Virus record (IMG/VR): IMGVR_UViG_2531839149_000015
DNA: 15,279 nt
From: a virus
Lineage: Duplodnaviria; Heunggongvirae; Uroviricota; Caudoviricetes
Direction: 5' to 3' (one strand)
In this document: in pieces, positions 1 through 15,279 of the stretch
How positions within the stretch are numbered: position 1 is the stretch's first letter
How the letters are laid out: each line of letters starts with the position of its first letter
Program-made: the position numbers and the translations under genes
Notes under the pieces: generated by a model
Seen by the model: the letters and a program-made list of their open reading frames with translations, nothing else
Told to the model about the DNA's origin: nothing
Databases searched by the model: none

Positions 1-90
1 TTGCCTCCCCCCCGTTGATGGGTAAAATAGCCGCAATTTTTCGTTTTCAACAAGCGCGGCGCGATGCCGCTTACTCAAGAAGAAAGAATT

Positions 91-165
91 ATGACGTTGT
101 CTCCTTATTTGCAAGAGGTGGCGAAGCGCCGCACTTTTGCCATTATTTCTCACCCCAATAATTAA
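91..165 (+). pseudogene. prfC: 5' fragment of prfC (peptide chain release factor 3) truncated at the prophage/host junction
   Basis: ATG at 91 translates [22 protein letters not shown], which I recall as the N-terminus of E. coli RF3, then diverges (NN, stop at 163-165) instead of continuing DAGKTT. Homology appears to end near 156/157. Confidence 0.55.
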
Positions 166-319
166 GCCCAAATTAAAGCTCTTTTACTCTTTCAAAATCC
201 TTTCAGTTAATTGAGCTTGAGCTATATAACTCATTTAAATACATTTGGTTATGTGGCTTCTTTAATTGAAAATTCTTTCATGTAACTTTAAATCGATCAG
301 TTTGCTTTCATCAAAAATC

Positions 320-376
320 TGTACATATGCTTGTACATAATGTACAAAACAGCAGAGGTGTTTTGCGATTTGTACA
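320..376. promoter_or_regulatory. Cluster of four TGTACA hexamers immediately upstream of int; candidate regulator-binding sites in the int promoter
   Basis: TGTACA at 320-325, 332-337, 341-346 and 371-376; TTGTACATAATGTACAA is near-palindromic. int RBS (AGGTGA) and ATG 386 follow directly. Confidence 0.3.
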
Positions 377-385
377 AGGTGAGTA

Positions 386-1609
386 ATGGCGTTGTCTGAT
401 GCGTGGTTGCGTTCAGTCGTTGGAAAGGAACGTGATAAGGTTTTGGTTAAATCCGATCGTGATGGTCTGTCTGTCAGAGTATCACCGAAAGGTCGCGTAG
501 TGTTCCAATATCGTTATCAATGGGCAGGGAAAGGTGAGCGTCTTGATATCGGAACTTACCCGGCAACTGGATTAAAAGAGGCCAGAGAAGAAGTTATCCG
601 TCTCCGTGGTGAACTTGAGTCAAACCGTAATCCACGATTGGTCAAGCAGGCTGAAAAACGAAAAGCTACTGAAGCCATGACGGTAGAGTCTGTGATCCGT
701 GCCTGGTATGAAGCATATTGTGTAAAAAATAAAAAAGGTTCTGAACAGATACTCCGCTCGTTTGAGCTGCACCTGTTCTCTAAAATCGGGAATATCCCTC
801 ACGATGCAGCTACATTGCATGATTGGTTAGAAGTCCTGGAGCCTCTTAGCACTAAGACTCCAGCAATAGCAGACCGATTGCTAATTAACGCAAAGCAGGC
901 CCATGTCTGGGCGTATAAGAGAAAGCTCATTGAAACTCGCCCGCTGTCGGATATCACGGGTAAAGATATGGATATCCGTAAAGGTCAGAAGAAACGGTTT
1001 CTGACACATGATGAAATTAAAATCCTTTATGCTGCGATCGATGGTTCTCGAATGGTTCCTAAATACCGGGCCTTCATTAAGCTATTGCTGCATTTTGGCT
1101 GCCGTAGTTCAGAGCTAATTACTGCCAGGGTGGGCGATTTTGATTTCATTAATAAGGTATGGACTGTACCACCAGAACGACATAAGACTGGAGAGATAAC
1201 AGGCGAACCGCTAAAGAGGCCCATTATTGAACCGGTGGAGGAGCTTATAAAGAACGCTATCTCTATGAACAATGGTTCCGATATGCTTTTTACTAAGGAA
1301 GGAAGCAGGGAACCCGTTGGTCGAACATCATTGCAGTCGCTGCCTTACAATTTAATGCAGTACGCATGGAGGCGTTTGGGGCATCAATTCCCTCATTGGT
1401 CTCTTCATGATTTGAGGCGAACAGCACGAACAAACTTTTCTGATCTTACTGCTCCTCATATTGCAGAAATAATGCTCGGCCATAAACTGCCAGGGGTTTG
1501 GCAGGTTTATGACAAGAGCGATTATCTAGAAGAACAGCGTAAAGCATATCAGGCATGGTGGGAGAGAGTTGAATCGATCGTTACTTGTACTGGCCCAGAA
1601 TCTACCTGA
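386..1609 (+). CDS. int: Tyrosine site-specific integrase, P4/CP4-57 type
   Basis: 407 aa. N-terminus MALSDAWLRS...GLSVRVSPKGRVVFQYRY is typical of the P4-integrase arm-binding domain; C-terminal catalytic region has HDLRRTA and a terminal Tyr region (VYDKSDYLEEQ). RBS AGGTGA upstream. Confidence 0.9.
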   Translation: MALSDAWLRSVVGKERDKVLVKSDRDGLSVRVSPKGRVVFQYRYQWAGKGERLDIGTYPATGLKEAREEVIRLRGELESNRNPRLVKQAEKRKATEAMTVESVIRAWYEAYCVKNKKGSEQILRSFELHLFSKIGNIPHDAATLHDWLEVLEPLSTKTPAIADRLLINAKQAHVWAYKRKLIETRPLSDITGKDMDIRKGQKKRFLTHDEIKILYAAIDGSRMVPKYRAFIKLLLHFGCRSSELITARVGDFDFINKVWTVPPERHKTGEITGEPLKRPIIEPVEELIKNAISMNNGSDMLFTKEGSREPVGRTSLQSLPYNLMQYAWRRLGHQFPHWSLHDLRRTARTNFSDLTAPHIAEIMLGHKLPGVWQVYDKSDYLEEQRKAYQAWWERVESIVTCTGPEST

Positions 1610-1865
1610 CAGCTTGCGTAGCCCTGACAGTCTGTTTTGAGCGAACAGTGGACATTTTCAATGGCATTCTTGAGTAGGTTACGCTTAGACCAGAAGTAAG
1701 AGGTGATAGAATTATCAACAATACATAAAACATAGGGGATCCTTATTGATTTATTGATCTTGACCAACTTATGTGATGCAGTATGTCTTTAACTTGTATT
1801 ACTATTATCTTTATCTTTATCTTGTTGTTTCTAATAAACTTATCTTATTTCAGAAAGGAGTTTTT

Positions 1866-3566
1866 ATGCATTTAGTCACGAAATCTTATTTCGATGCCTT
1901 TTGCAAAGCATTCGCTGCGCCCTATGAGGAGACCAAAAATTTTGAGGCGTTTGTGAACTATTGTGCTTTTTCAAAATACTCAGGCGACAAAGTTGAGGTC
2001 AGTGATCTTGTGTATGAAGGCCCGGACCCTGGTATTGATGGAGCATTTTTATTTTTAGACGACAGAGCCATTTTTTCAACTGAAGAACTTCAGGAGATTT
2101 TCCAAAACTCACGTCGCGAGTTTCAAGTTTCATTAGTATTCACGCAAGCTAAGTCATCGGAGAAGTGGAGCAAACAGGAAATAGACTCTTACATTGCGTC
2201 AATAAGAGATTATCTTTCACCAGCGCCACAACAACCCCACAGTGAATATCTAGCGGACTTTAAAAAAATGTTCAACTTGATATTTGCTAATATCGGCAGA
2301 GTCAAAAATGGCCTTCCAGACTTATACGCATATTTTTTTAGTGCTGCACAAAATACAGAGGCCAGAGAAATAAAAGCTGCATTTGCATCGGGTGAAAAAA
2401 GCTTAAAGTCACTCGGGTTTTCACATGAAACATCCTTCATTATGGCTCACAAAGACATGATTCATGAGCTTTGGCTTGCTGCGGAAGGTCCAATAGAAGC
2501 TAAACTTCCTACAATAGGCTATGCTCCATTCCCAGCGGCCCCTAATATTAATAATGCCTATGTAGCTACAGTCAAAGCTCGTAGTTTTATTGATTCTATA
2601 CTTAAAGACAAAAATGGAAACCCTCGAAAAAAATTATTCGAAGAAAATGTTAGAGATTTTCTGGGAATTGATGGTGACGTAAATTCAGAAATTGCAGGAA
2701 CACTAGATACTGATGGAAAAAAAGCAAGATTTGGTTTAATGAATAATGGAGTGACAATAGTTGCATCAAGCGTGAGGCCTGCAGGGCAAGAAATTTTTAT
2801 ACGAGATTTTCAAATTGTTAATGGATGTCAAACGTCTAATGTTCTTATATCAAAAGACATTCAAGTAGATGAATCAGTTAGTTTAATGATTAAATTAATT
2901 GAAACCGATGAGCCAGCGATCCTTGATGACATTGTACGAGCTACGAATAGACAATCTAAAGTTGAAGATGCACAGTTCATTTCAACGCTAAAAAAATTAA
3001 GGGAATTAGAACATTATTTTAATGCTAAAGGTGCTATTGAAGGAAATAAAATTTATTTTGAGAGAAGAAAGGGGCAGTATAGTTCAGAAAGTATAGCTCC
3101 AGTACGCATATTTGATATCAGAGAAGTTGCGCGAGCATATGCTGCTATTGTTATGATGAGACCAGATTATTCCAGTCGTTATCCAAATAGGTTAACTGGT
3201 GACTTACTTAATGAGGTTTTCTCTTCCGATGCCCTCGAGGATGATTATTATATATCTTGCTATTGCTTGTATAGGCTAAAGGCTCTTATCTCAAATAAGA
3301 GGTTTGATGGGAAGTATTCAAAATTACGCTGGCATATTCTAACTGCTGCGTCAAAATACTGTGGTAATAATTATAAGGCTTGGGGGTTCAAAAATAAAAA
3401 TGAAGCTCTTCATAACTTATTCTCAATGAATGATGGGGAGTGGTTTGAAAAACTTGAGAGTTTAGTAAAAATAGCTATACCAGATCCGGATATTTCTCGA
3501 GACTTACTAAAGTCGCAGCCTTTAACATCAACGATTCTCAAAAGTGTTGATAGCGTACCTAAATAA
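1866..3566 (+). CDS. AIPR-like abortive-infection protein (ParB/DndB-like fold with NGxQT-type motif); cargo gene between int and xis
   Basis: Strong RBS AAAGGAG (1854-1860) then ATG 1866; the ORF-track start at 1773 is an AT-rich leader artifact. 566 aa, markedly AT-rich versus flanks. Contains GIDG near the N-terminus and FQIVNGCQTSNVL in the middle, which I associate with the AIPR family. Followed by hairpin 3573-3591. Confidence 0.6.
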   Translation: MHLVTKSYFDAFCKAFAAPYEETKNFEAFVNYCAFSKYSGDKVEVSDLVYEGPDPGIDGAFLFLDDRAIFSTEELQEIFQNSRREFQVSLVFTQAKSSEKWSKQEIDSYIASIRDYLSPAPQQPHSEYLADFKKMFNLIFANIGRVKNGLPDLYAYFFSAAQNTEAREIKAAFASGEKSLKSLGFSHETSFIMAHKDMIHELWLAAEGPIEAKLPTIGYAPFPAAPNINNAYVATVKARSFIDSILKDKNGNPRKKLFEENVRDFLGIDGDVNSEIAGTLDTDGKKARFGLMNNGVTIVASSVRPAGQEIFIRDFQIVNGCQTSNVLISKDIQVDESVSLMIKLIETDEPAILDDIVRATNRQSKVEDAQFISTLKKLRELEHYFNAKGAIEGNKIYFERRKGQYSSESIAPVRIFDIREVARAYAAIVMMRPDYSSRYPNRLTGDLLNEVFSSDALEDDYYISCYCLYRLKALISNKRFDGKYSKLRWHILTAASKYCGNNYKAWGFKNKNEALHNLFSMNDGEWFEKLESLVKIAIPDPDISRDLLKSQPLTSTILKSVDSVPK

Positions 3567-3572
3567 AGAGAA

Positions 3573-3591
3573 GGGAAGCTTATTGCTTCCC
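3573..3591. terminator. Perfect 7-bp stem/5-nt loop hairpin just after the AIPR-like stop; U-run is on the minus-strand side
   Basis: GGGAAGC-TTATT-GCTTCCC. On the plus strand it is followed by AATAAATTA (weak); on the minus strand by TTCTCTTTATTT, so it may mainly stop leftward transcription. Confidence 0.35.
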
Positions 3592-3730
3592 AATAAATTA
3601 ACACACTTATAGAACCCTTGACTTAAACTTTTTACTGGTTCTCTCAGATATCGATAATTTTATAGGTTGTATCATAGCGTGATCGTCTTCAAGAGAAACA
3701 ACTTAACATTAAATTAGCAACGTTTGCTCT

Positions 3731-3770
3731 TGGCACAGACTTGACTGTCAGATTAGTTTGGTCTGTGCCA
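3731..3770. repeat. 10-bp perfect inverted repeat with 20-nt spacer, between the AIPR-like gene and the AlpA-like gene
   Basis: TGGCACAGAC (3731-3740) and GTCTGTGCCA (3761-3770). No adjacent U-tract, so a protein-binding or recombination site is as likely as a terminator. Confidence 0.4.
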
Positions 3771-3804
3771 TAGATATGTCAGCTCCCATCTGAGATAATA
3801 CACG

Positions 3805-3999
3805 TTACTCAATAACTCCAGCAAATCTGTATATCTTGCGTGATGCCCATTTATTTGGGCAGGATTTAATATCAGGATCTGGAAAGTCAGGCCTGTATTT
3901 CTGGCCAGTTCTCCTGTTTACGCTGTTCCAGCGAAGAACAGTCGATACTGAAACGCCACAGAAGTCGGCGACTTGTTTAGTTGTCATTAAGTTGTTCAT
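3805..3999 (-). CDS. AlpA/excisionase-family small HTH DNA-binding protein (candidate recombination directionality factor / int regulator)
   Basis: 64 aa; MTTKQVADFCGVSVSTVLRW is a helix-turn-helix typical of AlpA/Xis-type proteins. Start overlaps the stop of the upstream gene (TAATG), i.e. translationally coupled. Confidence 0.7.
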   Translation of the reverse strand: MNNLMTTKQVADFCGVSVSTVLRWNSVNRRTGQKYRPDFPDPDIKSCPNKWASRKIYRFAGVIE

Positions 4000-4619
4000 T
4001 ACTTCACCTCCTGCGGCGGCTCCGGTAGCGGCATCCAGTGGGTTACTTTCGATGCCGGTTCTTCCCTATCGTCAGTAACTGCCCACCATTTGTTTCTCGA
4101 CCAATCGTAATCCCCTTCGAAGGTATCGCACTCAGTCCAGCCGTAAGGCTTCCCCCAACACCAAACATACTGTTTATCGTTCGGCATTCGCTCACTACAG
4201 CTTATCCAACCATCCGGAGTTACTGGAGAGTTGCCCGACAGCTTGTTCAACTTGTAAGTCTGGCTTACAGGTTCGGCACCATGAAGCATGGCGGCGCGGC
4301 AGGCGTTCCAGCCTTCATCAAAACCGACTATGCCATTATTTAAAGACGGACGAGCATCTGGCACCACCGGCACTGGCTTGGCTATATATAGCGGCTGAAC
4401 ATACCAGCCCTTTGATAACCAACTGTCAGCAATGTTTTTACTCCTCGTTATTGCCGGAATACCTAAGCCATTTTCTGAATGCAGCCATGCCACCGGCTCC
4501 TCTTCTAGCGATGCCAGAGCAATTTCATAAGCACGGCGCTCAATATCGTCTCGAACCTCTAGGCTGCTGATTCGTTCTTTGATTTCTTTAATCAGTTCTT
4601 TATCGGTAAATGTGGTCAT
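3999..4619 (-). CDS. DUF551-type phage protein (yfdT-like position)
   Basis: 206 aa; C-terminal WISCSERMP...VTHWMPLPEPP matches the DUF551 signature as I recall it. Start overlaps the upstream stop. Confidence 0.65.
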   Translation of the reverse strand: MTTFTDKELIKEIKERISSLEVRDDIERRAYEIALASLEEEPVAWLHSENGLGIPAITRSKNIADSWLSKGWYVQPLYIAKPVPVVPDARPSLNNGIVGFDEGWNACRAAMLHGAEPVSQTYKLNKLSGNSPVTPDGWISCSERMPNDKQYVWCWGKPYGWTECDTFEGDYDWSRNKWWAVTDDREEPASKVTHWMPLPEPPQEVK

Positions 4620-4981
4620 TATGCTCCAGCCTCCGGTGCTTTTGGCATTACTGCCCAGTGAGTGATATTGACGTTTTCAAGGTCCCCGACCTGAAATGTC
4701 CACTGCCATTCTCCGGTTTCTTTTTGCCCCCATGTATCCCAGAGAGAACGCCAGCCAATCAGCCAGCCTTCTCCATTAGCATCAAATAACAAAACACTTT
4801 CATTTGCTGGTGGCAGTTCAGTTGACACTGGTATTACTTTGTTTTCCTGTGCTGCACATTTAGCTTCAAGCGCATCGAATTTACGCACTAGGTATTCAGC
4901 ATCCGTTTCATTCACTTTCAGATCTCGCGGTACACATCTCCCACGAAGAAACCCTTCCATTTCGAAAACATTCATGCGCAT
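4619..4981 (-). CDS. DUF551-like phage protein (yfdS-like; 120 aa)
   Basis: C-terminal ...NITHWAVMPKAPE resembles the DUF551 motif; overlaps both neighbours in a coupled operon. Confidence 0.6.
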   Translation of the reverse strand: MRMNVFEMEGFLRGRCVPRDLKVNETDAEYLVRKFDALEAKCAAQENKVIPVSTELPPANESVLLFDANGEGWLIGWRSLWDTWGQKETGEWQWTFQVGDLENVNITHWAVMPKAPEAGA

Positions 4982-5508
4982 TTGCGTAACTCCGATAATT
5001 CGTTAAAGCGTTCCATAAACATCCCGTAGGCATGGCCTGGAGCCAGTGGAATCACGTTGAACATCTCTGTTGCCGGGATACCTTCCAGCACAGGCCAGAA
5101 AGAGCCATCATCAAGCCCGAGATCGCGGCGTTCGGTTGCCAGCATAATGAGATCGGCATATTTCACTGGCGTGCTCATAACAGGAGGTAACCCGTATTTC
5201 TCACGGATTACGGCGTCTATTTTTTCTTCCATCCGTTTATAGTCAGGAAGAAGTCGTTTCAGTGGTGCGGGGATGTCCTGGCAATATGCTTCTGTTGCAT
5301 CATGCATTAAAGCTTCAAAAGCAAATTCCTGCGGCACCAGCTGGCTGCAAAGCACCGCATGTTGGGCGACGCTGTAGAAGTGAGAAAGATGACCGGCAAA
5401 GCGGCAGATATTTGAAAGGGAAACCGCGATATCGTTAATAACGATGTCGTCTTTATTTATCTTGTCATAATAAAAATGCTTCCCGGAAAAAGTTTTAATA
5501 AATGACAT
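4972..5508 (-). CDS. yfdR: HD-domain phosphohydrolase (YfdR-like putative 5'-deoxynucleotidase)
   Basis: Start moved to the ATG at 5508 (RBS GGAG 7 nt upstream; MSFIKTF...), giving 178 aa. H...HD metal-binding motif (AQHAV...ALMHDATEAY). Length and position match CPS-53 YfdR as I recall it. Confidence 0.65.
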   Translation of the reverse strand: MSFIKTFSGKHFYYDKINKDDIVINDIAVSLSNICRFAGHLSHFYSVAQHAVLCSQLVPQEFAFEALMHDATEAYCQDIPAPLKRLLPDYKRMEEKIDAVIREKYGLPPVMSTPVKYADLIMLATERRDLGLDDGSFWPVLEGIPATEMFNVIPLAPGHAYGMFMERFNELSELRKCA

Positions 5509-5602
5509 TTTGTTCTCCACTTTATATGCGCTGCACCGCGCTGAATTTTGGTTAAAGAAAACCCTCGCCATCAGGCGATTATTGAGTTAATTACGTTTCC
5601 AT

Positions 5603-5624
5603 AAATGCCCCCGCAGGGGCATTT
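5603..5624. other. Intergenic 9-bp stem hairpin between the yfdQ-like and yfdR-like genes
   Basis: AAATGCCCC-CGCA-GGGGCATTT. No clear U-tract on either strand; possible attenuator or RNA-processing/stability element. Confidence 0.3.
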
Positions 5625-5636
5625 GCAGTAATGAAA

Positions 5637-6461
5637 TCAGGCGGTGAAAGTACCAATAAAGGTTTCTACTTTGCTGTCTTTGAATTTTTCAACAAGCAGA
5701 TCACGAAATTCGTTAGCCATTTCTTCCTGCACTGCTTCCAGCTGAATAATGCGCAGAACCAGTACAGGGCGATCACCAGTGATAATGCTGAGGCGTAATT
5801 TAAACGGACGTTCTTTCAGGCCTTCAAACGGAACGCATTTAAACTCAAATGCTACTGGCATAATGTCTTTGGTTTTCGCTTCGACAGACTCCATCAGAGA
5901 GCGTTTGCCGCTGAAGTCATTGTCTTCAAAATCAGCGGTCTGGTTTGCTTCAATCGTGATTTTACGGACCGCCGCAGCCGCTTTTGTTGCCTGAATGGCG
6001 TCACCATTAGCATCAAAGCCCACAAGGTAGTCGGCCCAGTCTTCAATCCATTCTGCCAGTGACTTCTGGGAGTTACGCTCGCCGTTAACAGACAACAGAG
6101 CAGAGAACGGTGCTGTCTTTTTCAGTTTGAGAGTGGCGGTGTTATCTGCGTGACCTGGTTCATCAATAGTACCCAGGTTAAGCACACTGACGGCACGCAT
6201 ATTATCGGCATCGATAAAGCAGCGGGTGCCTTCATCTGCAAGAACTTTAGAATAACGGGTAAAGTCATCGATGCTGGCAGTGGAAAGCGCACCACGGAAA
6301 CGGAAGCGATTTAAATTAAATTTTTCCAGATCATGAATGCGGAAATTCTCAGGCAATGCCACAGCATCGGCACCAATCTTACTGATAATTTCATTAACAC
6401 CCTGAGCAGAAATAAGGGCATGGATTTGATTAATTGCGGTTGCGTCTAAGTTCTGAGACAT
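5637..6461 (-). CDS. yfdQ: DUF2303-family phage protein (YfdQ-like)
   Basis: 274 aa, same length and operon position as CPS-53 YfdQ as I recall it; uninterrupted ORF with normal composition. Confidence 0.6.
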
Positions 6462-6526
6462 AATAAGTCCTCACTATATAAAGATATTCAGTGATGAGAT
6501 AAATAATCGGTTAATTAAGAACGATA

Positions 6527-6889
6527 TTAATGACCTGCTGCGCGGAGTTTTCCGTCAGGTTCACCGGCAAGAGTCAGTAATTGTCCCTGGTCTTCCTGCA
6601 GAATAGTCAGGCGACCACCGCGATTGACATACATCGGCGTTTCGGTGGTGTCTTCTTCGGAAATTTTCCCGCGGTTAGTCGGGCGAACATATGAGAGTTT
6701 GTGTTTGATTTTCACACGGTTCTCATCAAATGGTTCGATTTCCAGGTTGAGTGAGACCTTACCTTTGGTTTTCGTGTTCATCACACCGGAAGCGACTTCA
6801 CTGAGAACTGCGCCGATTTTGGTTTCAAATACGCCGCCGTCCAGCTCCCCAATAAATGCCTGCACATCAGTACTGCGTTCGCTAGCCAT
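6527..6889 (-). CDS. Conserved phage early protein of unknown function (yfdP-like position, 120 aa)
   Basis: Start set at ATG 6889 (MASERSTDVQ...) with RBS AGGAG 7 nt upstream. The 226-aa ORF-track extension to 7207 is C/R/W-rich, non-protein-like text. Confidence 0.55.
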   Translation of the reverse strand: MASERSTDVQAFIGELDGGVFETKIGAVLSEVASGVMNTKTKGKVSLNLEIEPFDENRVKIKHKLSYVRPTNRGKISEEDTTETPMYVNRGGRLTILQEDQGQLLTLAGEPDGKLRAAGH

Positions 6890-6937
6890 TTTTCTGCTCC
6901 TAATCATATCGACCCTGCAAGGTCGGTTGGTTTCTCC

Positions 6938-7026
6938 ACAAAACAGAGAAGAACACCTGCGGTGGCAGCCGCCCGGATGGATTGGGTTATGAGCCCGTCG
7001 TCCGGTGATGTTCTTCTCTGTTTTGT
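6938..7026. repeat. 18-bp perfect inverted repeat (stem) enclosing a 53-nt GC-rich loop; core of a structured non-coding region
   Basis: ACAAAACAGAGAAGAACA (6938-6955) pairs perfectly with TGTTCTTCTCTGTTTTGT (7009-7026). No flanking U-tract. Further local hairpins lie 7080-7150. Confidence 0.55.
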
Positions 7027-7358
7027 AAAAAGAGCGGTACCAGCCGGAAGCAAGTGTACAAACTTGTACCGCGAGGACTACACACAGCATAAAGTTGTGG
7101 TGCCGGGTGCCTCCCGGTGCCTGGCGAAGGTTGCACACCAGGCGGGTGGGTATCCACAGAAGGTCGACTGTCAGCCTCAACCTTAACCCGCGTGCGCTGA
7201 GCCGCATTCACCACAACGCTAAGGATTCTCTCTGGTTGAAAATACTTAGCTGTTATGTGCCTGCTTTTAGCCACATCAGGCGAGGTGGACCTAGTTATTC
7301 CCCAACAACAAGGATTTGGTTAATCTGGATATCCCCAACAACTAGCTGAGTATTCAAC

Positions 7359-7880
7359 GTGATAGCTGAACTGTCTGCGGCTATGGCCGCTATAAAGGAG
7401 ACTGCCGGTCTTGCTAAGGTTATTAATGACGCGAAAACGGATGCAGAAGTTAAAGCTGCAACCATTGAACTCCAGAACAAACTAATCACGCTTCAGGCAG
7501 AATGCTTCTCTCTTGGCGATGCGATCCGCCTTCGTGATGAAGAGGTGATGCATCTCAAAGCAAAAATTGCAGAGTTTGAAGATTTTTGTGCCAAGGTAGA
7601 AGGATATGTCCTTGATCAGCTTGACTCTGGTGCTTTTGTTTACTCTAAAAATGAAATTGTGAGTGGAAAAGAAATAACTGTGCATCTGTGCCCACTTTGT
7701 TATTCCAAAAATATAAAATCGATACTTCATCCGCTTCCAGTAGGTAAAACTTCTCATTTTCTTACAAGCCGTTGCCTTCACTGTGAAAATAAATTTCTTA
7801 TGGAAAAAAATCCGATGTACGAACGACCAAGATCATTACGTGAGTTGGGGCGAGATCTGAATTCGCCTTGGATTCCTTAA
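7359..7880 (+). CDS. Hypothetical coiled-coil / C4 zinc-ribbon protein; moron oriented opposite to the early-left operon
   Basis: 173 aa from GTG 7359 (alternative ATG 7383). N-terminal heptad-like region (IELQNKLITLQAE...LKAKIAEFEDF), C-terminal CPLC...CLHC. AT-rich 3' half; own terminator at 7923-7945. Confidence 0.6.
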   Translation: MIAELSAAMAAIKETAGLAKVINDAKTDAEVKAATIELQNKLITLQAECFSLGDAIRLRDEEVMHLKAKIAEFEDFCAKVEGYVLDQLDSGAFVYSKNEIVSGKEITVHLCPLCYSKNIKSILHPLPVGKTSHFLTSRCLHCENKFLMEKNPMYERPRSLRELGRDLNSPWIP

Positions 7881-7922
7881 ATCTTGCATTGGTTGGATGA
7901 TACCCAGATTGTTAAAGAGCTA

Positions 7923-7945
7923 AGCGTCCTGTAGGGCGCTTTTTT
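7923..7945 (+). terminator. Rho-independent terminator of the moron gene
   Basis: AGCGTCC-TGTA-GGGCGCT (7-bp stem, one G-U pair) followed by TTTTT, about 45 bp after the stop at 7880. Confidence 0.6.
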
Positions 7946-8028
7946 GTTGCTAACGAATCATCCTGGACTTCATATGCCCCAGGCGGCTACTTCGTGGGCG
8001 TCCTGCCTGTTCGTTATCTTTGATATAA

Positions 8029-8057
8029 AATCTAACTTAACTTAGTTATCATGGCAA
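8029..8057 (-). promoter_or_regulatory. Candidate leftward (pL-like) promoter with overlapping operator
   Basis: On the minus strand: TTGCCA (-35; plus 8052-8057), 17-bp spacer, TAGATT (-10; plus 8029-8034). The 14-mer CTAAC-TTAA-CTTAG (8032-8045) overlaps the spacer/-10 and matches the operator architecture seen between cI and cro. Confidence 0.35.
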
Positions 8058-8110
8058 GAGAAAACACCAAACTTTTCTTAGTTCGGTGCCTTAGTTAGAG
8101 AAGAGAGGCC

Positions 8111-8737
8111 TTAGAGTTCGTATTGAACTCCTTTGACTACACCAATGATAAGGCAATTACCATTGATAGGGATGTTGGGATACCGAGGATTTAATGGTAC
8201 TAAAAACTTTTGAGGGCCATCGATGACTAATTTTTTTACTGTAGCTTCGTTTGTTCCATCAAGTCGAGCGATGACTATTTTTCCATGACGAGGTTCTGCA
8301 TCTGGATCTACAATCACTGTTGCGCCTTCTGGTATTGTTGGGAGGCCATTAGGGTTAGTCATGGAGTCACCTTTAACCTCTAATGCAAATGAGTTATCAC
8401 CAACCTTTAATGATGTATCTACCCACTTGTCCACTTCACTAAACACTTCTGCTGCCCTGCACTCAGTAAACTGCCCAGCCTGAACCCACGATATTACAGG
8501 AACTCTGCGCATGTTTGTGACGAGTTTGCCTTCAAACTCAGCACCATAAAGAATGTAATCTATTGACGTATTGAAGAACTTCGCTAATTTCGAAAGTGCC
8601 TCCCCACCAGGGGTATTGATGTCTTTCTCCCAGTACCCCACAGCAACGTCGCTTACTCCACAAAATTTACCCAATTCTTTCTGGGACGTTCTGGTAACTC
8701 TTCTCAGAGCTTTTATACGCTGACCAACCGTTTCCAT
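8111..8737 (-). CDS. cI: CI-like repressor (XRE-type HTH plus S24 LexA-like autopeptidase domain)
   Basis: 208 aa; N-terminal HTH (QKELGKFCGVSDVAVGYWE), C-terminal S24 signature with GDSM serine and KKL lysine; divergent from a cro-like gene. Confidence 0.85.
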   Translation of the reverse strand: METVGQRIKALRRVTRTSQKELGKFCGVSDVAVGYWEKDINTPGGEALSKLAKFFNTSIDYILYGAEFEGKLVTNMRRVPVISWVQAGQFTECRAAEVFSEVDKWVDTSLKVGDNSFALEVKGDSMTNPNGLPTIPEGATVIVDPDAEPRHGKIVIARLDGTNEATVKKLVIDGPQKFLVPLNPRYPNIPINGNCLIIGVVKGVQYEL

Positions 8738-8759
8738 AGGAGCACCATTTCTTTAATTG

Positions 8760-8822
8760 CTAAGTAATCTTAGTTTTTATTGACCAAAGATAGATTTGTA
8801 ATTAGCATCTAATAAAACTTAG
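8760..8822. promoter_or_regulatory. Divergent immunity promoter/operator region (two palindromic 14-mers flanking a sigma70-like promoter)
   Basis: O1 CTAAG-TAAT-CTTAG (8760-8773); -35 TTGACC (8780-8785); 17-bp spacer; -10 TAGCAT (8803-8808); O2 CTAAT-AAAA-CTTAG (8809-8822); RBS GGAGG (8826-8830); cro ATG 8835. Confidence 0.5.
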
Positions 8823-8834
8823 TTTGGAGGGCGT

Positions 8835-9035
8835 ATGACAACTGACGATATCGAAAGCTACTTCGGCAGTATTGAGAAAGTTGCTGCTTTTTTCGGCATA
8901 ACAACTGAAGCCGTTTATCAGTGGCGAAACCGTCCGGGCCAGTTAATTCCAAAAGGACGTGCAGCAGAAGCTGCATATAGAACTTGCGGACGGTTGCCAT
9001 TTAAACCTGAGCTTTATGAAAAATCTAATGGATAA
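8835..9035 (+). CDS. Cro-like small HTH regulator (YdaS/Cro-type)
   Basis: 66 aa; HTH (EKVAAFFGITTEAVYQWRNR); first gene of the rightward operon opposite cI. Confidence 0.7.
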   Translation: MTTDDIESYFGSIEKVAAFFGITTEAVYQWRNRPGQLIPKGRAAEAAYRTCGRLPFKPELYEKSNG

Positions 9036-9630
9036 ATCGATTAACAGAAACCACAGAACGATGAGGCTAACCGTGGGTAAGCATCACTGGAAAGTAGAAA
9101 AACAGCCTGAGTGGTACGTGAAAGCTGTCAGAAAAACTATCGCAGCGTTGCCGGGGGGTTACGCTGAAGCAGCTGACTGGCTGGATGTAACAGAGAACGC
9201 ATTATTTAACCGCCTTCGTGCCGATGGCGATCAGATTTTCCCGCTGGGATGGGCAATGATTTTGCAACGTGCTGGTGGAACTCACTTCATTGCTGACGCT
9301 GTGGCGCAGTCTGCAAATGGCGTCTTTGTGTCTCTTCCTGACGTCGAGGATGTGGACAACGCCGATATTAACCAGCGTCTGCTGGAAGTCATTGAACAGA
9401 TCGGCAGTTATTCAAAACAGATTCGTTCAGCAATCGAAGACGGTGTAGTGGAACCGCATGAGAAGACAGCAATTAACGACGAGCTGTATCTCTCAATTTC
9501 GAAGCTGCAGGAGCATGCAGCACTTGTCTACAAAATTTTTTGCATTTCAGAAAGTAATGACGCCCGCGAGTGTGCAGCTCCGGGCGTCGTGGCGTCGATT
9601 GCTTCTGGTTGTGGAGAAACTAACGCATGA
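9016..9630 (+). CDS. CII-like / YdaT-type phage regulatory protein
   Basis: Start uncertain (ATG 9016 or 9028, overlapping the cro end; ORF track begins 8959). Position after cro and general features suggest a CII/CP76-type regulator; assignment is by synteny and memory. Confidence 0.5.
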
Positions 9631-9985: not shown

Positions 9986-10916
9986 ATTAACCGGCTATGT
10001 ATGGGATGGTTGCGCTGCATCAGGCATGAAGTTATCCAGCGTGGCAATTATGGCCCGCCTGGCTGATTTCAGTAATGACGAAGGTGTGTGCTGGCCATCA
10101 ATTGAAACCATTGCCCGTCAGATTGGCGCGGGGATGAGTACCGTCAGAACGGCTATCGCACGGCTGGAAGCAGAAGGCTGGTTAACGCGTAAGGCGCGTC
10201 GCCAGGGTAACCGCAATGCGTCGAATGTTTATCAGCTTAACGTTGCGAAGCTTCAGGCAGCGGCATTTTCTCAACTGTCAGATTCTGACCCGTCAAAATC
10301 TGACGCATCAAAATCTGACCCGTCAAAATTTGATGCGTCGAAATCTGGCAAAAAAGCGGGTTTTCACCCGTCAGAATCTGGCGGGGATCCGTCAGTAAAA
10401 TCAAAACATGATCCGTCAGATAAAAAACCTTCTCGTCCGGACGCTTCGCAACCGGACACGCAGACGGATGAACAGGATTTTTTAACTCGCCATCCTGATG
10501 CGGTTGTATTCAGCCCTAAAAAGCGCCAGTGGGGGACGCAGGATGATTTGACCTGCGCACAGTGGCTCTGGAAAAAAATCATCGCCCTGTACGAGCAGGC
10601 TGCCGAATGTGACAGCGAGGTGGTTCGTCCCAAAGAACCGAACTGGACAGCCTGGGCAAACGAAATTCGCCTGATGTGTGTGCAGGATGGTCGTACTCAC
10701 AAACAAATCTGCGAGATGTACAGCCGCGTCAGCCGCGATCCGTTCTGGTGCCGTAACGTGCTCAGCCCGTCGAAGCTGCGGGAAAAATGGGATGAGCTTT
10801 CCCTGCGCTTATCGCCGTCCGTCAGCACGTACACAGAAAAACGCGAAGACCCGTACTTCAAAGCCAGTTACGACAATGTGGACTACAGCCAGATCCCGGC
10901 AGGATTCAGGGGGTGA
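9975..10916 (+). CDS. Phage replication initiation protein (N-terminal winged-helix DNA-binding domain, pentapeptide-repeat linker, C-terminal domain)
   Basis: 313 aa; N-terminal HTH (SIETIARQIGAGMSTVRTAIARLEAEGWL); central PSKSD/ASKSD repeats encoded by 15-bp DNA iterons; occupies the gene-O position after the cII-like gene. Confidence 0.75.
   Translation: MSTKLTGYVWDGCAASGMKLSSVAIMARLADFSNDEGVCWPSIETIARQIGAGMSTVRTAIARLEAEGWLTRKARRQGNRNASNVYQLNVAKLQAAAFSQLSDSDPSKSDASKSDPSKFDASKSGKKAGFHPSESGGDPSVKSKHDPSDKKPSRPDASQPDTQTDEQDFLTRHPDAVVFSPKKRQWGTQDDLTCAQWLWKKIIALYEQAAECDSEVVRPKEPNWTAWANEIRLMCVQDGRTHKQICEMYSRVSRDPFWCRNVLSPSKLREKWDELSLRLSPSVSTYTEKREDPYFKASYDNVDYSQIPAGFRG
10275..10349. repeat. Five contiguous 15-bp iterons inside the replication gene (candidate origin), with degenerate copies to about 10427
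   Basis: CTGTCAGATTCTGAC / CCGTCAAAATCTGAC / GCATCAAAATCTGAC / CCGTCAAAATTTGAT / GCGTCGAAATCTGGC; further CCGTCAGAATCTGGC (10368), CCGTCAGTAAAATC (10389), CCGTCAGATAAAAAA (10413) with A-rich stretches. Confidence 0.6.
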
Positions 10917-10918
10917 GC

Positions 10919-11407
10919 ATGAGTCTTTTGAATGACGTTCAGAAATTCATTGAAGCCCATCCGGGCTGTACTTCCGGAGACATTGCGGATGCTTTTGCAG
11001 GTTACTCACGGCAGCGCGTTCTGCAGTCAGCAAGCAAGTTACGTCAGAGTGGGCGTGTGGCTCACCGTTGTGAAGGAGATACACACAGACATTTCCCGCG
11101 CCTGACTGAGAGAGCGCAGGATCCGGAACCACAACCAGTTCGTGAAACCAGACCTGTGCGCAATTTCTATGTCGGCACTAACGACCCGCGGGTGATTTTG
11201 TGCCTGACCCGCCAGGCGGAAGAACTGGAGTCCAGGGGCTTATACCGTCGTGCTGCAACGGTGTGGATGGCGGCATTCCGTGAAAGCCACTCCCTGCCAG
11301 AACGAAACAATTTTTTGGCGCGTCGTGAACGGTGTTTACGGAAAAGCAGTAAGCGGGCTGCATCAGGTGAAGAGTGGTATCTCTCAGGGAATTACGTGGG
11401 GGCTTAA
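10919..11407 (+). CDS. Hypothetical protein with C-terminal PerC-like motif
   Basis: ATG 10919 (RBS AGGGGG; overlaps upstream stop). C-terminal LTRQAEELESRGLYRRAATVWM closely parallels RKAEELESKGLYRRAAARWM of the PerC-family ORF at 13738. No Walker motifs, so not a P/DnaC-type helicase loader. Confidence 0.6.
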   Translation: MSLLNDVQKFIEAHPGCTSGDIADAFAGYSRQRVLQSASKLRQSGRVAHRCEGDTHRHFPRLTERAQDPEPQPVRETRPVRNFYVGTNDPRVILCLTRQAEELESRGLYRRAATVWMAAFRESHSLPERNNFLARRERCLRKSSKRAASGEEWYLSGNYVGA

Positions 11408-12060: not shown

Positions 12061-12383
12061 CGACGTTAACTCAATGCCAGCAGCAGGTGCTGGATATGCT
12101 GATTTCTTATCAGAAAGAACGCGGCTTCCCGCCAACCAATCAGGAGGTGGCAACCATGCTGGGATACCGTTCGGTGAATGCAGCGGTGGAGCATCTTCGC
12201 GCACTGGAGAAAAAAGGCGTCATCACGATAAAGCGTGGTGTGGCCCGGGGGATCACGCTTCATACCGCGGTGAAGGACGACGACAGCGAGGCGGTCGGGA
12301 TTATCCGCTCACTGCTTGCCGGTGAGGAAAACGCAAGGCTGCGTGCAGCCCACTGGTTACATGAGAGGGGGCTGAAAGTATGA
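12057..12383 (+). CDS. LexA N-terminal DNA-binding-domain-like protein (no peptidase domain)
   Basis: 108 aa; MTTLTQCQQQVLDMLISYQKERGFPPTNQEVATMLGYRSVNAAVEHLRALEKKGVI parallels the LexA winged-helix domain; ends without an S24 domain. ATGA overlap with the Dam stop. Confidence 0.6.
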   Translation: MTTLTQCQQQVLDMLISYQKERGFPPTNQEVATMLGYRSVNAAVEHLRALEKKGVITIKRGVARGITLHTAVKDDDSEAVGIIRSLLAGEENARLRAAHWLHERGLKV

Positions 12384-12592
12384 AGCTGATTCTGCCTTTT
12401 CCACCCAGCGTGAACACCTACTGGCGACACCCCAACAAAGGGGCATTTGCTGGTAAGAGCCTGATAAGCGCGGCGGGGCGAAAATTCCAAAGTGCGGCGT
12501 GCACAGCAATAGTTGAGCAGTTACGTCGTCTGCCGAAACCAACGTCGGCACCTGCTTCAGTGGAGATCGTGTTGTTTCCTCCGGATATCTGA
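12380..12592 (+). pseudogene. rusA: Truncated rusA (Holliday-junction resolvase) N-terminal fragment
   Basis: LPFPPSVNTYWRH matches the RusA N-terminal motif; the ORF stops after ...VEIVLFPPDI (70 aa), where full-length RusA would continue with its catalytic acidic residues. No continuation in other frames; downstream sequence is unrelated. Confidence 0.65.
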
Positions 12593-13737: not shown

Positions 13738-14019
13738 ATGATAAGGGACAGGAAAGCTGAAGAGCTGGAGTCAAAAGGGCTATACCGGAGAGCTGCCGCA
13801 CGATGGATGGAAGTCATGCTGTTATGCAGCGAGGACGATGATCGGGAATGGATAAAGCGCCGCCGTGAAACGTGTCTGGAGAACGTGAAGCGCCCGCCCG
13901 TGAAGGTTGAGGAATTTGGCGACCTGCATAAAGCTGTTACCGAAACGCAACACCGCATGGGGATAGCGCAACCGAACGGTAACGCCTTCCGGTTAAATGG
14001 CGGCAAGAGGCAAAGGTAG
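13738..14019 (+). CDS. PerC-family transcriptional activator (Pch-like)
   Basis: 93 aa; MIRDRKAEELESKGLYRRAAARWMEV... matches the PerC/Pch signature as I recall it; RBS GAGAGG upstream. Confidence 0.6.
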   Translation: MIRDRKAEELESKGLYRRAAARWMEVMLLCSEDDDREWIKRRRETCLENVKRPPVKVEEFGDLHKAVTETQHRMGIAQPNGNAFRLNGGKRQR

Positions 14020-14502: not shown

Positions 14503-14823
14503 ATTACCTTTATTCACCTTTATATATTCGAACAACAAAACCTCTCGCAGGTCTCGCCAATAAAGGGATATAGCAGTAACTATGACCGCCGAATGGCAAA
14601 GCTACGATGCAAGTCGCTGGTTTCCAAACTTGAGGTTTCCAGGACGGTTTCAACCAAATTGCGGATTATCAGCCAAACGCACCGGGTATCTTGCGCGGTG
14701 GATGGTGAGCCATCACGCAGAATCTTTAAATGGCATTTTACGATGGGCAATACCCGTGGTTATATGCGATTATTAACGGTAGTGGACAGTTATAGACGAA
14801 AACATACGGCAGGAGATTGGATA

Positions 14824-15279
14824 ATGGCAGTTACAACCCTTAACAGCGTAGCGGATTACCTGCTTTGCTTTGCTCAAGAGCATGGGGATGTTATGACGCC
14901 GCTGAAACTGCAAAAAATGGTGTTCTATGCTGATGCTTGGTTCATGGCGCTGAATGATGGCGAAGAACTGGTTGCTGACAAGTTTGAAGCATGGGTACAT
15001 GGCCCTGTAGCCAGAGATTTGTATACCAGATTTGCAGATTACAAATGGCGCTCAATAGACGAAGAGATTGCCTGCCCTGAGTTACCTGCGAATGTGTCAA
15101 AGCATCTAAAGGAAATCTATGAGGTATTTGGCGGTTATACAGCTTATGAGCTGGAGCAGATGACGCACCAAGAAAAGCCGTGGCTGGAGGCCCGTGAAGG
15201 GGTTCCATCAGATGCGCCGTGCAAGAATGTTATTGATAAAAGTGTAACGGCTGAGTTTTATCGTTCGATGGCTTCCTAA
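14824..15279 (+). CDS. Panacea-domain (DUF4065) protein, PanA/SocA/GepA-like putative antitoxin
   Basis: Start set at ATG 14824 (RBS AGGAGA 7 nt upstream) rather than the ORF-track start 14593. 151 aa with TPLKLQKMVFYADAWFMALNDGEEL, matching the Panacea signature as I recall it. Stop is at the last base of the window. Confidence 0.7.
   Translation: MAVTTLNSVADYLLCFAQEHGDVMTPLKLQKMVFYADAWFMALNDGEELVADKFEAWVHGPVARDLYTRFADYKWRSIDEEIACPELPANVSKHLKEIYEVFGGYTAYELEQMTHQEKPWLEAREGVPSDAPCKNVIDKSVTAEFYRSMAS

Follow-up and report, generated by a model that had tools for sequence, protein, structure and literature searches.

A Rip1-family gene behind a sieB-type control region: probable exchangeable defence cargo in the early-left region of a prophage

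The Locus and Its Gene

The subject of this report is a single gene in a stretch of 15,279 nucleotides from a virus of the Caudoviricetes (IMG/VR record IMGVR_UViG_2531839149_000015), which is called the window below and whose numbering is used throughout. The gene lies at 7359-7880 on the + strand, begins with GTG and encodes 173 amino acids; its product is listed in RefSeq as WP_000559913.1, 'hypothetical protein', and belongs to PHROG 1244. The protein can be placed with high confidence as a true, if divergent, homologue of the prophage-encoded defence protein Rip1.

From left to right, the window holds an integrase gene (386-1609, +), an AbiU/AIPR gene (1773-3566, +), a series of early-left genes on the - strand encoding DUF551 proteins, YfdR, YfdQ and YfdP, and then the gene at 7359-7880. 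To its right lies a gene for a cI-like repressor of the LexA family (8111-8737, -), with which it is convergent, and next on the + strand come cro, ymfL and replication genes. An initial annotation, made from the letters of the DNA, had described a single gene opposite in strand to all early-left genes, with a GC-poor 3' half, a terminator of its own and a C-terminal cysteine motif, and this description holds in every part. yfdP, yfdQ, yfdR and the DUF551 genes are all on the - strand, and the GC content drops from about 0.45 in the 5' half of the gene to 0.35-0.375 over 7600-7899. The open reading frame (ORF) is under purifying selection, its ratios of non-synonymous to synonymous substitution (dN/dS) against relatives lying between 0.02 and 0.15 in codons 2-56 and between 0.12 and 0.73 in the remaining codons, and 7359-7880 is therefore a real protein-coding gene. 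All 16 homologous loci examined use GTG as their start, variation at third codon positions sets in directly after it, and the DNA upstream consists of long unbroken conserved runs.

Downstream, an intrinsic terminator spans 7922-7947 on the + strand, its 8-bp stem covering 7922-7941 and TTTTTTGTTG coming next. It is the top terminator-like site within 6800-9100 and stays in the centroid fold, and it persists in prophages where other + strand cargo substitutes for the gene, the right breakpoint being at 7904. The candidate pL/operator region that had been placed near 8030 is also borne out. There are exactly three copies of the motif CTAA-N6-TTAG in the window, one just left of cI (8032-8045) and two between cI and cro (8760-8773 and 8809-8822); 0.21 copies would be expected by chance, and none of 200 shuffled sequences reached three or more. 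The left copy, CTAACTTAACTTAG at 8032-8045, is overlapped by a pL-like promoter on the - strand (TTGCCA-17-TAGATT, read from 8057 to 8029). Since the left operator copy overlaps this promoter-like site, the gene is placed between pL/OL and the early-left genes and antisense to pL, and transcripts from the pL-like promoter would run antisense through 7359-7880.

A Divergent Member of the Rip1 Family

No family had been recognised for the protein in the initial annotation, which proposed profile and structure searches. Both were run, both matched Rip1 (PDB 9oox), a protein described in 2026, and the earlier statement is thereby superseded. In a phmmer search against PDB sequences the sole significant match was Rip1 chain 9oox_L (E 1.8e-9), residues 5-151 of the query aligning with residues 15-160 of the 164-residue chain and the CxxC...CxxC cysteines standing in register. 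A profile built from 27 homologues matched the same protein at E 1.2e-20 over nearly its full length, and BLASTP aligned the window protein with gp37 of phage HK446, which is the Rip1 of 9oox (YP_007111990.1), at 25% identity (E 2e-13) and with gp30 of the Pseudomonas phage JBD30 at 30% identity (E 3e-20). An AlphaFold2 model made on the homologue alignment (mean predicted local distance difference test score 91.6) has two helices, at residues 2-24 and 28-79, and after them a domain of six strands. Searched against the PDB with Foldseek, it retrieved only 9oox_L and 9oox_M at E <= 1e-3, with probability 1.00 and target-normalised template-modelling scores of 0.52/0.73, and the predicted fold matches Rip1 over 116 of 124 residues. 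The title of PDB entry 9oox is 'Escherichia phage HK446 Rip1 in complex with the Enterobacteria phage T6 small terminase'.

On the DNA, the two helices correspond to codons 1-79 (7359-7595), a conserved half that is the putative pore-forming or oligomerising part, and the beta-rich domain to codons 84-150 (7608-7808), a variable half that is the putative sensor of phage rings. The latter carries four cysteines, C111 (7689-7691), C114 (7698-7700), C139 (7773-7775) and C142 (7782-7784), which are invariant in 27 of 27 homologues and whose CxxC pairs recur in JBD30 gp30; the domain is described here as zinc-ribbon-like and putatively metal-binding. In length (173 residues in the window, 164 in HK446), in domain order (long helices, then a compact beta-rich C-terminal domain with CxxC...CxxC) and in similarity over most of its length the protein resembles characterised Rip1. 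It also resembles it in being a stand-alone gene of a temperate phage or prophage that is opposite in strand to its neighbours, an arrangement found in the window, in HK446, in JBD30 and in 16 loci of other Enterobacterales. HK446 rip1 is reverse-oriented in the pL operon, where it is flanked by N, whose end it overlaps, and by a ral-like gene, and JBD30 gp30 is reverse-oriented between gp29 and gp31. There are also differences, namely the low identity, a tail at residues 151-173 of the window protein that has no counterpart in the alignment, and the setting, as the window gene directly separates pL/OL from the early-left genes, with no recognisable N and with its own terminator.

The family is large, since an exhaustive profile search returned 2516 cluster representatives at E <= 1e-3, 784 of them at E <= 1e-10. 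Searches of the window protein against Pfam, NCBIfam and PADLOC-DB v2.0 gave noise only, and the PHROGs search gave phrog_1244 alone, labelled 'unknown function'. The PADLOC negative is uninformative, because the genuine Rip1 proteins of HK446 and JBD30 are missed by PADLOC-DB v2.0 as well, the library predating the family.

Rip1, 'ring interacting pore 1', was reportedly presented by Patel et al. in Nature in 2026 (651:1060). It is a defence system consisting of a single prophage-encoded protein, non-toxic by itself, which protects against phage through premature permeabilisation of the membrane (PMC13434031). Phages that escape it carry changes in the portal in the case of phages of Pseudomonas, or in the small terminase in the case of those of Escherichia coli (PMC13434031). 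Cryo-electron microscopy has shown 12 Rip1 copies encircling an 11-mer small-terminase ring, with the C-terminal half touching the ring and the N-terminal part forming the pore helices, and the complexes make liposomes leak dye; homologues occur widely among Proteobacteria, chiefly in prophages (PMC13434031). This account is matched by a meeting report and by a paper on terminase sensing.

Conservation is distributed unevenly along the protein. When 120 homologues are compared with the window protein, their identity averages 0.84 over residues 1-55, 0.67 over residues 56-100 and 0.47 over residues 101-150, and many homologues have an N-terminal part that is 93-100% identical yet a C-terminal domain of only 27-47% identity. 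Near-identical N-terminal parts joined to such diverged C-terminal domains indicate intragenic shuffling, with which the GC-poor 3' half of the gene is consistent. A conserved effector half combined with a diversifying sensor half is also what would be expected of a ring-templated pore with variable targets. In Trabulsiella odontotermitis (locus L012, 3698-3934), a 78-residue ORF consisting of diverged N-terminal helices only stands directly upstream of a Rip1-like gene of full length, and it might serve as a decoy or a regulator or represent a remnant.

A sieB-Type Control Region

Immediately upstream of the gene lies a conserved non-coding element, here called the platform (7255-7358, +), which comprises the promoter and the 5' leader and is homologous to the DNA upstream of sieB in phages lambda and P22 and of rip1 in HK446. 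It is 74-93% identical across genera, compared with 57-91% for the coding sequence, in which synonymous sites are saturated, and 1521 of 5426 complete E. coli genomes (about 28%) contain it. Its first block (7255-7288, strand unspecified), which reads TGCCTG-CTTTTAGCCACATCAGGCGAGGTGG and offers the overlapping hairpin options GCCUG/CAGGC and CCAC/GUGG, is almost invariant among the window, lambda, P22 and HK446. It is followed by two direct repeats of TCCCCAACAAC on the + strand (7299-7309 and 7332-7342), which are 33 bp apart and flank a -10-like hexamer, TAATCT, at 7321-7326. TAATCT and TTC(CC) are invariant in the alignment of homologous loci. In lambda (locus L033, about 610-680), P22 (locus L035, 4695-4738) and HK446, both repeats read CCCCTACAG and not the CCCCAACAAC of the window clade; the copies have thus changed in step, a hint that one reader, either a protein or an RNA, serves both. 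A connection between the CA-rich repeats and pairing with GcvB-type small RNAs is one that we take to be possible.

The assignment of a promoter follows from homology to P22 and not from a promoter scan. In the P22 record the sieB promoter is annotated at 29690..29720 and the start of the sieB RNA at 29727; the 3' hexamer of this promoter, TAAACT, aligns with TAATCT at 7321-7326 and the RNA start aligns with about 7332, so that a transcription start of the window gene is predicted near 7332. Such a start gives a leader of about 27 nucleotides, and GAG is found 8 nucleotides ahead of the GTG. The presence of the gene's own promoter is thus supported by a promoter and RNA start annotated in P22.

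In P22, sas is a 105-nucleotide cis-antisense RNA that pairs with the sieB mRNA and switches sieB translation (PMC12197685). In its length and position the platform could accommodate a sas-like antisense element, and such an RNA would have the complement of the platform as its target region or template. No match to Rfam was found in the platform.

The window gene and the sieB/esc/sas system of lambda and P22 have in common a rightward gene lying antisense in the pL operon and expressed in the lysogen, an expression that is proposed for the window gene. In lambda, sieB is the only rightward gene between ral and N, and HK446 rip1 occupies the same position. Homology is seen in the DNA of the promoter and leader, where both systems have the hairpin block as well as the pair of C-rich repeats, these reading CCCCAACAAC in the window. 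The proteins, in contrast, are unrelated (probability 0.05 when the family profile was compared with lambda SieB by hhalign), and the window family has no conserved internal in-frame start like that of esc, M9 being Leu in some relatives. A second classical comparison is lambda rexAB, a lysogen-expressed abortive-infection function whose proposed outcome is membrane depolarisation. It resembles the window gene in lying next to cI, between cI and pL/OL or adjacent. It differs from it in that rexAB is cotranscribed with cI, on the same strand, and needs two proteins, whereas a single protein, unrelated to them in sequence, is encoded by the window gene, which is found beyond OL and on the opposite strand.

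An Exchangeable Slot

The initial annotation regarded the gene as a moron occupying a position where lambdoid phages carry exclusion or defence genes, and proposed a survey of its presence between pL and the early-left genes in related prophages. The survey, now made, supports this reading, as prophages with the same yfdP (WP_000135680.1), a near-identical cI and the same cro hold other cargo in the interval of the gene. In one (locus L006) this is a gene for an ECs1072-family protein together with a small - strand ORF; in two others (L007 and L008) it is a - strand gene for a 90-residue protein, with or without a ClpX-type zinc-finger protein; in a fourth (L009) it is a + strand gene for a 166-residue protein that bears no relation to the window protein. 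The breakpoints are sharp. Where the new cargo is on the + strand, the replaced segment runs from 7343 (or 7331) to 7903, and about 90 nucleotides upstream (7255-7342 of the platform) and the terminator stay in place; where it is on the - strand, the replaced segment is 7289-7950 and block 1 is the sole part of the platform that is kept. The possibility that the 166-residue and ECs1072 cargos are diverged alleles of the Rip1-family gene was rejected on comparison, as they are unrelated.

Further occupants are found behind the platform elsewhere, among them another Rip1-like allele in O157:H7, adjoining racR, an IS3 insertion, and related proteins of 148 and 159 residues with a long hydrophobic segment. 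The latter two matched no Pfam or NCBIfam model, and an identification as SieB was discarded, BLASTP of the 159-residue protein against lambda SieB giving no alignment. The + strand cargo genes behind a sieB-type platform lie at 1132-1566 in locus L006, 1138-1638 in L009, 1869-2315 in L030, 1798-2277 in L032 and 1704-2138 in L029; searches of these five found no PADLOC or Pfam match, and in NCBIfam only ECs1072 (NF033230). The 166-residue cargo has a signal-peptide-like start. Accessions of alternative cargo proteins are WP_000016389.1, of the ECs1072 family, WP_021549917.1, WP_000196297.1 and WP_086257790.1. The ECs1072, 166-residue and 148-/159-residue cargos are candidates for lysogen-expressed defence or exclusion genes. 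The proposal of a slot for exclusion or defence genes also agrees with the shared upstream platform, which is the one that precedes sieB in lambda and P22, and with the membership of the window protein in the Rip1 defence family.

The exact allele of the gene is present in 53 complete E. coli genomes (megablast with the coding sequence alone), its first 172 nucleotides are matched in 97 genomes in a distant search mode, and at least 80% of 7200-8100 is matched in 373 genomes, where the conserved flanks seed the alignment; these counts vary with the search mode and are kept separate. At least 10 of the 16 loci from other Enterobacterales have the homologue beside a repressor-like gene, with which it is convergent and whose type varies. 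Strain Survcare253 has an intact copy of the gene in a prophage remnant of about 15 kb that has no late genes, which favours an advantage for the host over a function in the assembly of its own phage. It is also found in an apparently complete prophage of strain 2021CK-01784, with its own small terminase and portal, and some self-tolerance must therefore exist.

Proposed Function and Alternatives

The most likely function of the gene, and one that we consider probable, is that of a lysogen-expressed abortive-infection pore of the Rip1 type, carried as exchangeable cargo in a sieB-type socket. In the lysogen, cI would repress pL and the gene would be transcribed from its own sieB-type platform promoter (about 7332) to its own terminator, giving a protein that by itself would be harmless. 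During late expression of a heterologous phage, ring oligomers of small terminase or portal would be bound by the variable C-terminal zinc-ribbon domain, about 12 copies would gather on the ring, and the conserved N-terminal helices would form a pore in the inner membrane that kills the cell ahead of the maturation of progeny. On induction of the resident prophage, pL transcription would run antisense through the gene and its platform and collide with transcription of the gene; by analogy with sas of P22, this would lower the expression of the cargo and help to spare the resident prophage.

Several observations weigh against this reading. The identity to characterised Rip1 proteins is only 25-30%, and the literature, as far as we have found, shows no experimentally studied member of the clade of the window protein. 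The statements on the Rip1 mechanism used here are based on a review (PMC13434031), a meeting report and the title of a PDB entry. The Eisenberg moment of the N-terminal helices is a modest 0.15-0.34, and in a simple test residues 1-18 were not above shuffled sequences, so that an amphipathic helix able to line a pore was not clearly seen. The promoter is weak by consensus, and a promoter scan made no call for the gene. RNAalifold, applied to both strands of the platform, gave weak energies and essentially no covariation, and the single-sequence fold of the antisense strand has a z score of -0.14, with no excess folding energy. Finally, the window reveals no means by which an intact prophage avoids triggering its own copy. 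Even so, it is probable that the window protein acts like Rip1.

Among the alternatives, the one that fares best, though it is itself unlikely, is an exclusion or defence protein that shares only ancestry and fold with Rip1 and works by a different mechanism, with another trigger or by blocking DNA entry. The low identity and the highly variable C-terminal domain would allow this, and the classical occupant of the slot, SieB, is a sequence-unrelated exclusion protein. The alignment, however, covers the two domains along their whole length and keeps the cysteines, the match of the predicted fold is equally extensive, and the characterised family already combines differing triggers (portal and small terminase) with one mechanism (PMC13434031).

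A still less probable alternative is that the Rip1 fold serves the phage itself, binding the phage's own terminase or portal ring as a regulator of the zinc-ribbon type or as an accessory in morphogenesis, for instance to time packaging or lysis. It would draw on the binding of Rip1 relatives to small terminase or portal rings (PMC13434031), on the position of the gene between packaging genes in Pseudomonas phages and on its presence in the complete prophage of 2021CK-01784 beside terS and portal genes. It sits poorly with the absence of the gene from close relatives with identical flanks, which makes it dispensable, with its intact state in a remnant that lacks any late genes, and with its place behind a lysogen-type sieB promoter and antisense to lytic transcription; moreover, Rip1 itself has been demonstrated to be a defence protein (PMC13434031).

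Slightly weaker again, and quite improbable, is an addiction module resembling type I, in which a latent membrane-damaging protein would be checked by a sas-like cis-antisense RNA and would stabilise the prophage. The pore-forming nature of the Rip1 family (PMC13434031), a platform common to sieB, which is controlled by the antisense RNA sas (PMC12197685), and the persistence of the gene in a defective prophage are in keeping with it. Against this, Rip1 alone is reported to be non-toxic (PMC13434031), the fold of the antisense strand showed no stable structure, and the antisense transcript would start at pL, which is off in lysogens and hence not a standing antidote. A decaying or non-functional hitch-hiking ORF, as might be thought from the label 'hypothetical' in RefSeq and from its location in a prophage remnant in some strains, is highly improbable, being excluded by the selection analysis (dN/dS 0.02-0.73) and opposed by invariant cysteines, a high-confidence model and thousands of relatives.

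The proposal of a Rip1-type pore can be extended, tentatively and with considerable doubt, to the slot as a whole. The platform and the shared terminator may form a general lambdoid plug-in socket, whose cargo would be expressed in the lysogen and silenced during lytic growth by antisense RNA derived from pL or borne by a phage, giving immunity to the carrier and to phages that share the platform. If this holds, control at the RNA level would stop the Rip1-like protein from being set off by its own terminase or portal, and the ECs1072, 166-residue and 148-/159-residue cargos would be new anti-phage genes.

Other Features of the Window and Related Prophages

Within the early-left operon, 3999-4981 on the - strand encodes adjacent DUF551 proteins of 206 and 120 residues. 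STnc100 is a family of prophage small RNAs that has recently been linked to PasD, and a full-length, sub-threshold match to it in Rfam (RF02076) lies at 7025-7247 on the - strand (42.8 bits against a gathering threshold of 47, E 5.9e-8). It overlaps a RefSeq pseudogene annotated as a 'frameshifted hypothetical protein' at 6904-7214, and because of this overlap the pseudogene may really be a small RNA gene in the pL leader. A second cargo slot adjoins the integrase; in the window it is occupied by the AbiU/AIPR gene (386-3566 region; PADLOC AbiU 2.8e-111, Pfam AIPR) and in the related complete prophage of 2021CK-01784 (locus L027, 14582-19815) by the sirtuin defence gene dsr1.

To the right, the window contains a truncated rusA and two genes for PerC-family regulators, features located at 12380-12592, 10913-11407 and 13738-14019. 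At the right end, 14593-15279 (RefSeq start 14824) encodes a Panacea (SocA-like antitoxin) protein that runs off the window, and in Survcare253 a small hypothetical gene comes next; the two may form a toxin-antitoxin pair of the prophage remnant. The truncated rusA, together with host genes (the pao operon) within a few kb in Survcare253, identifies the element copy of that strain as a remnant without late genes. Positions 3500-9500 were not found contiguous at 100% identity in any complete E. coli genome of the collection, the best reaching 95% coverage at 96.8% identity. Perfect matches to both parts do exist, for example in Survcare253, where some 325 kb separate the left 5 kb (1-5000) from the middle (7200-8100). 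With no contiguous match and parts so widely separated, the window looks like either a recombinant of two related prophages or a piece of a genome from outside the collection.

Conclusion

Rip1 is a kind of system known since 2026, and homologues in proteobacterial prophages have already been reported in general terms; the window gene is a further member of this family. Its assignment provides a probable function for a protein that is 'hypothetical' in RefSeq and of unknown function in PHROGs and for which Pfam, NCBIfam and PADLOC offer no model, and it adds to the Rip1 defence family a distinct clade that is common in prophages of Enterobacterales. The combination of near-invariant N-terminal helices with shuffled C-terminal zinc-ribbons suggests a natural library of sensors for phage rings. 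The finding of Rip1 cargo on the classical sieB promoter and leader ties a regulatory puzzle of the 1990s, that of sas and esc, to a modern defence system and marks a common cargo socket; as the platform is present in more than a quarter of complete E. coli genomes, it offers a cheap handle by which more lysogen-expressed defence genes may be found.

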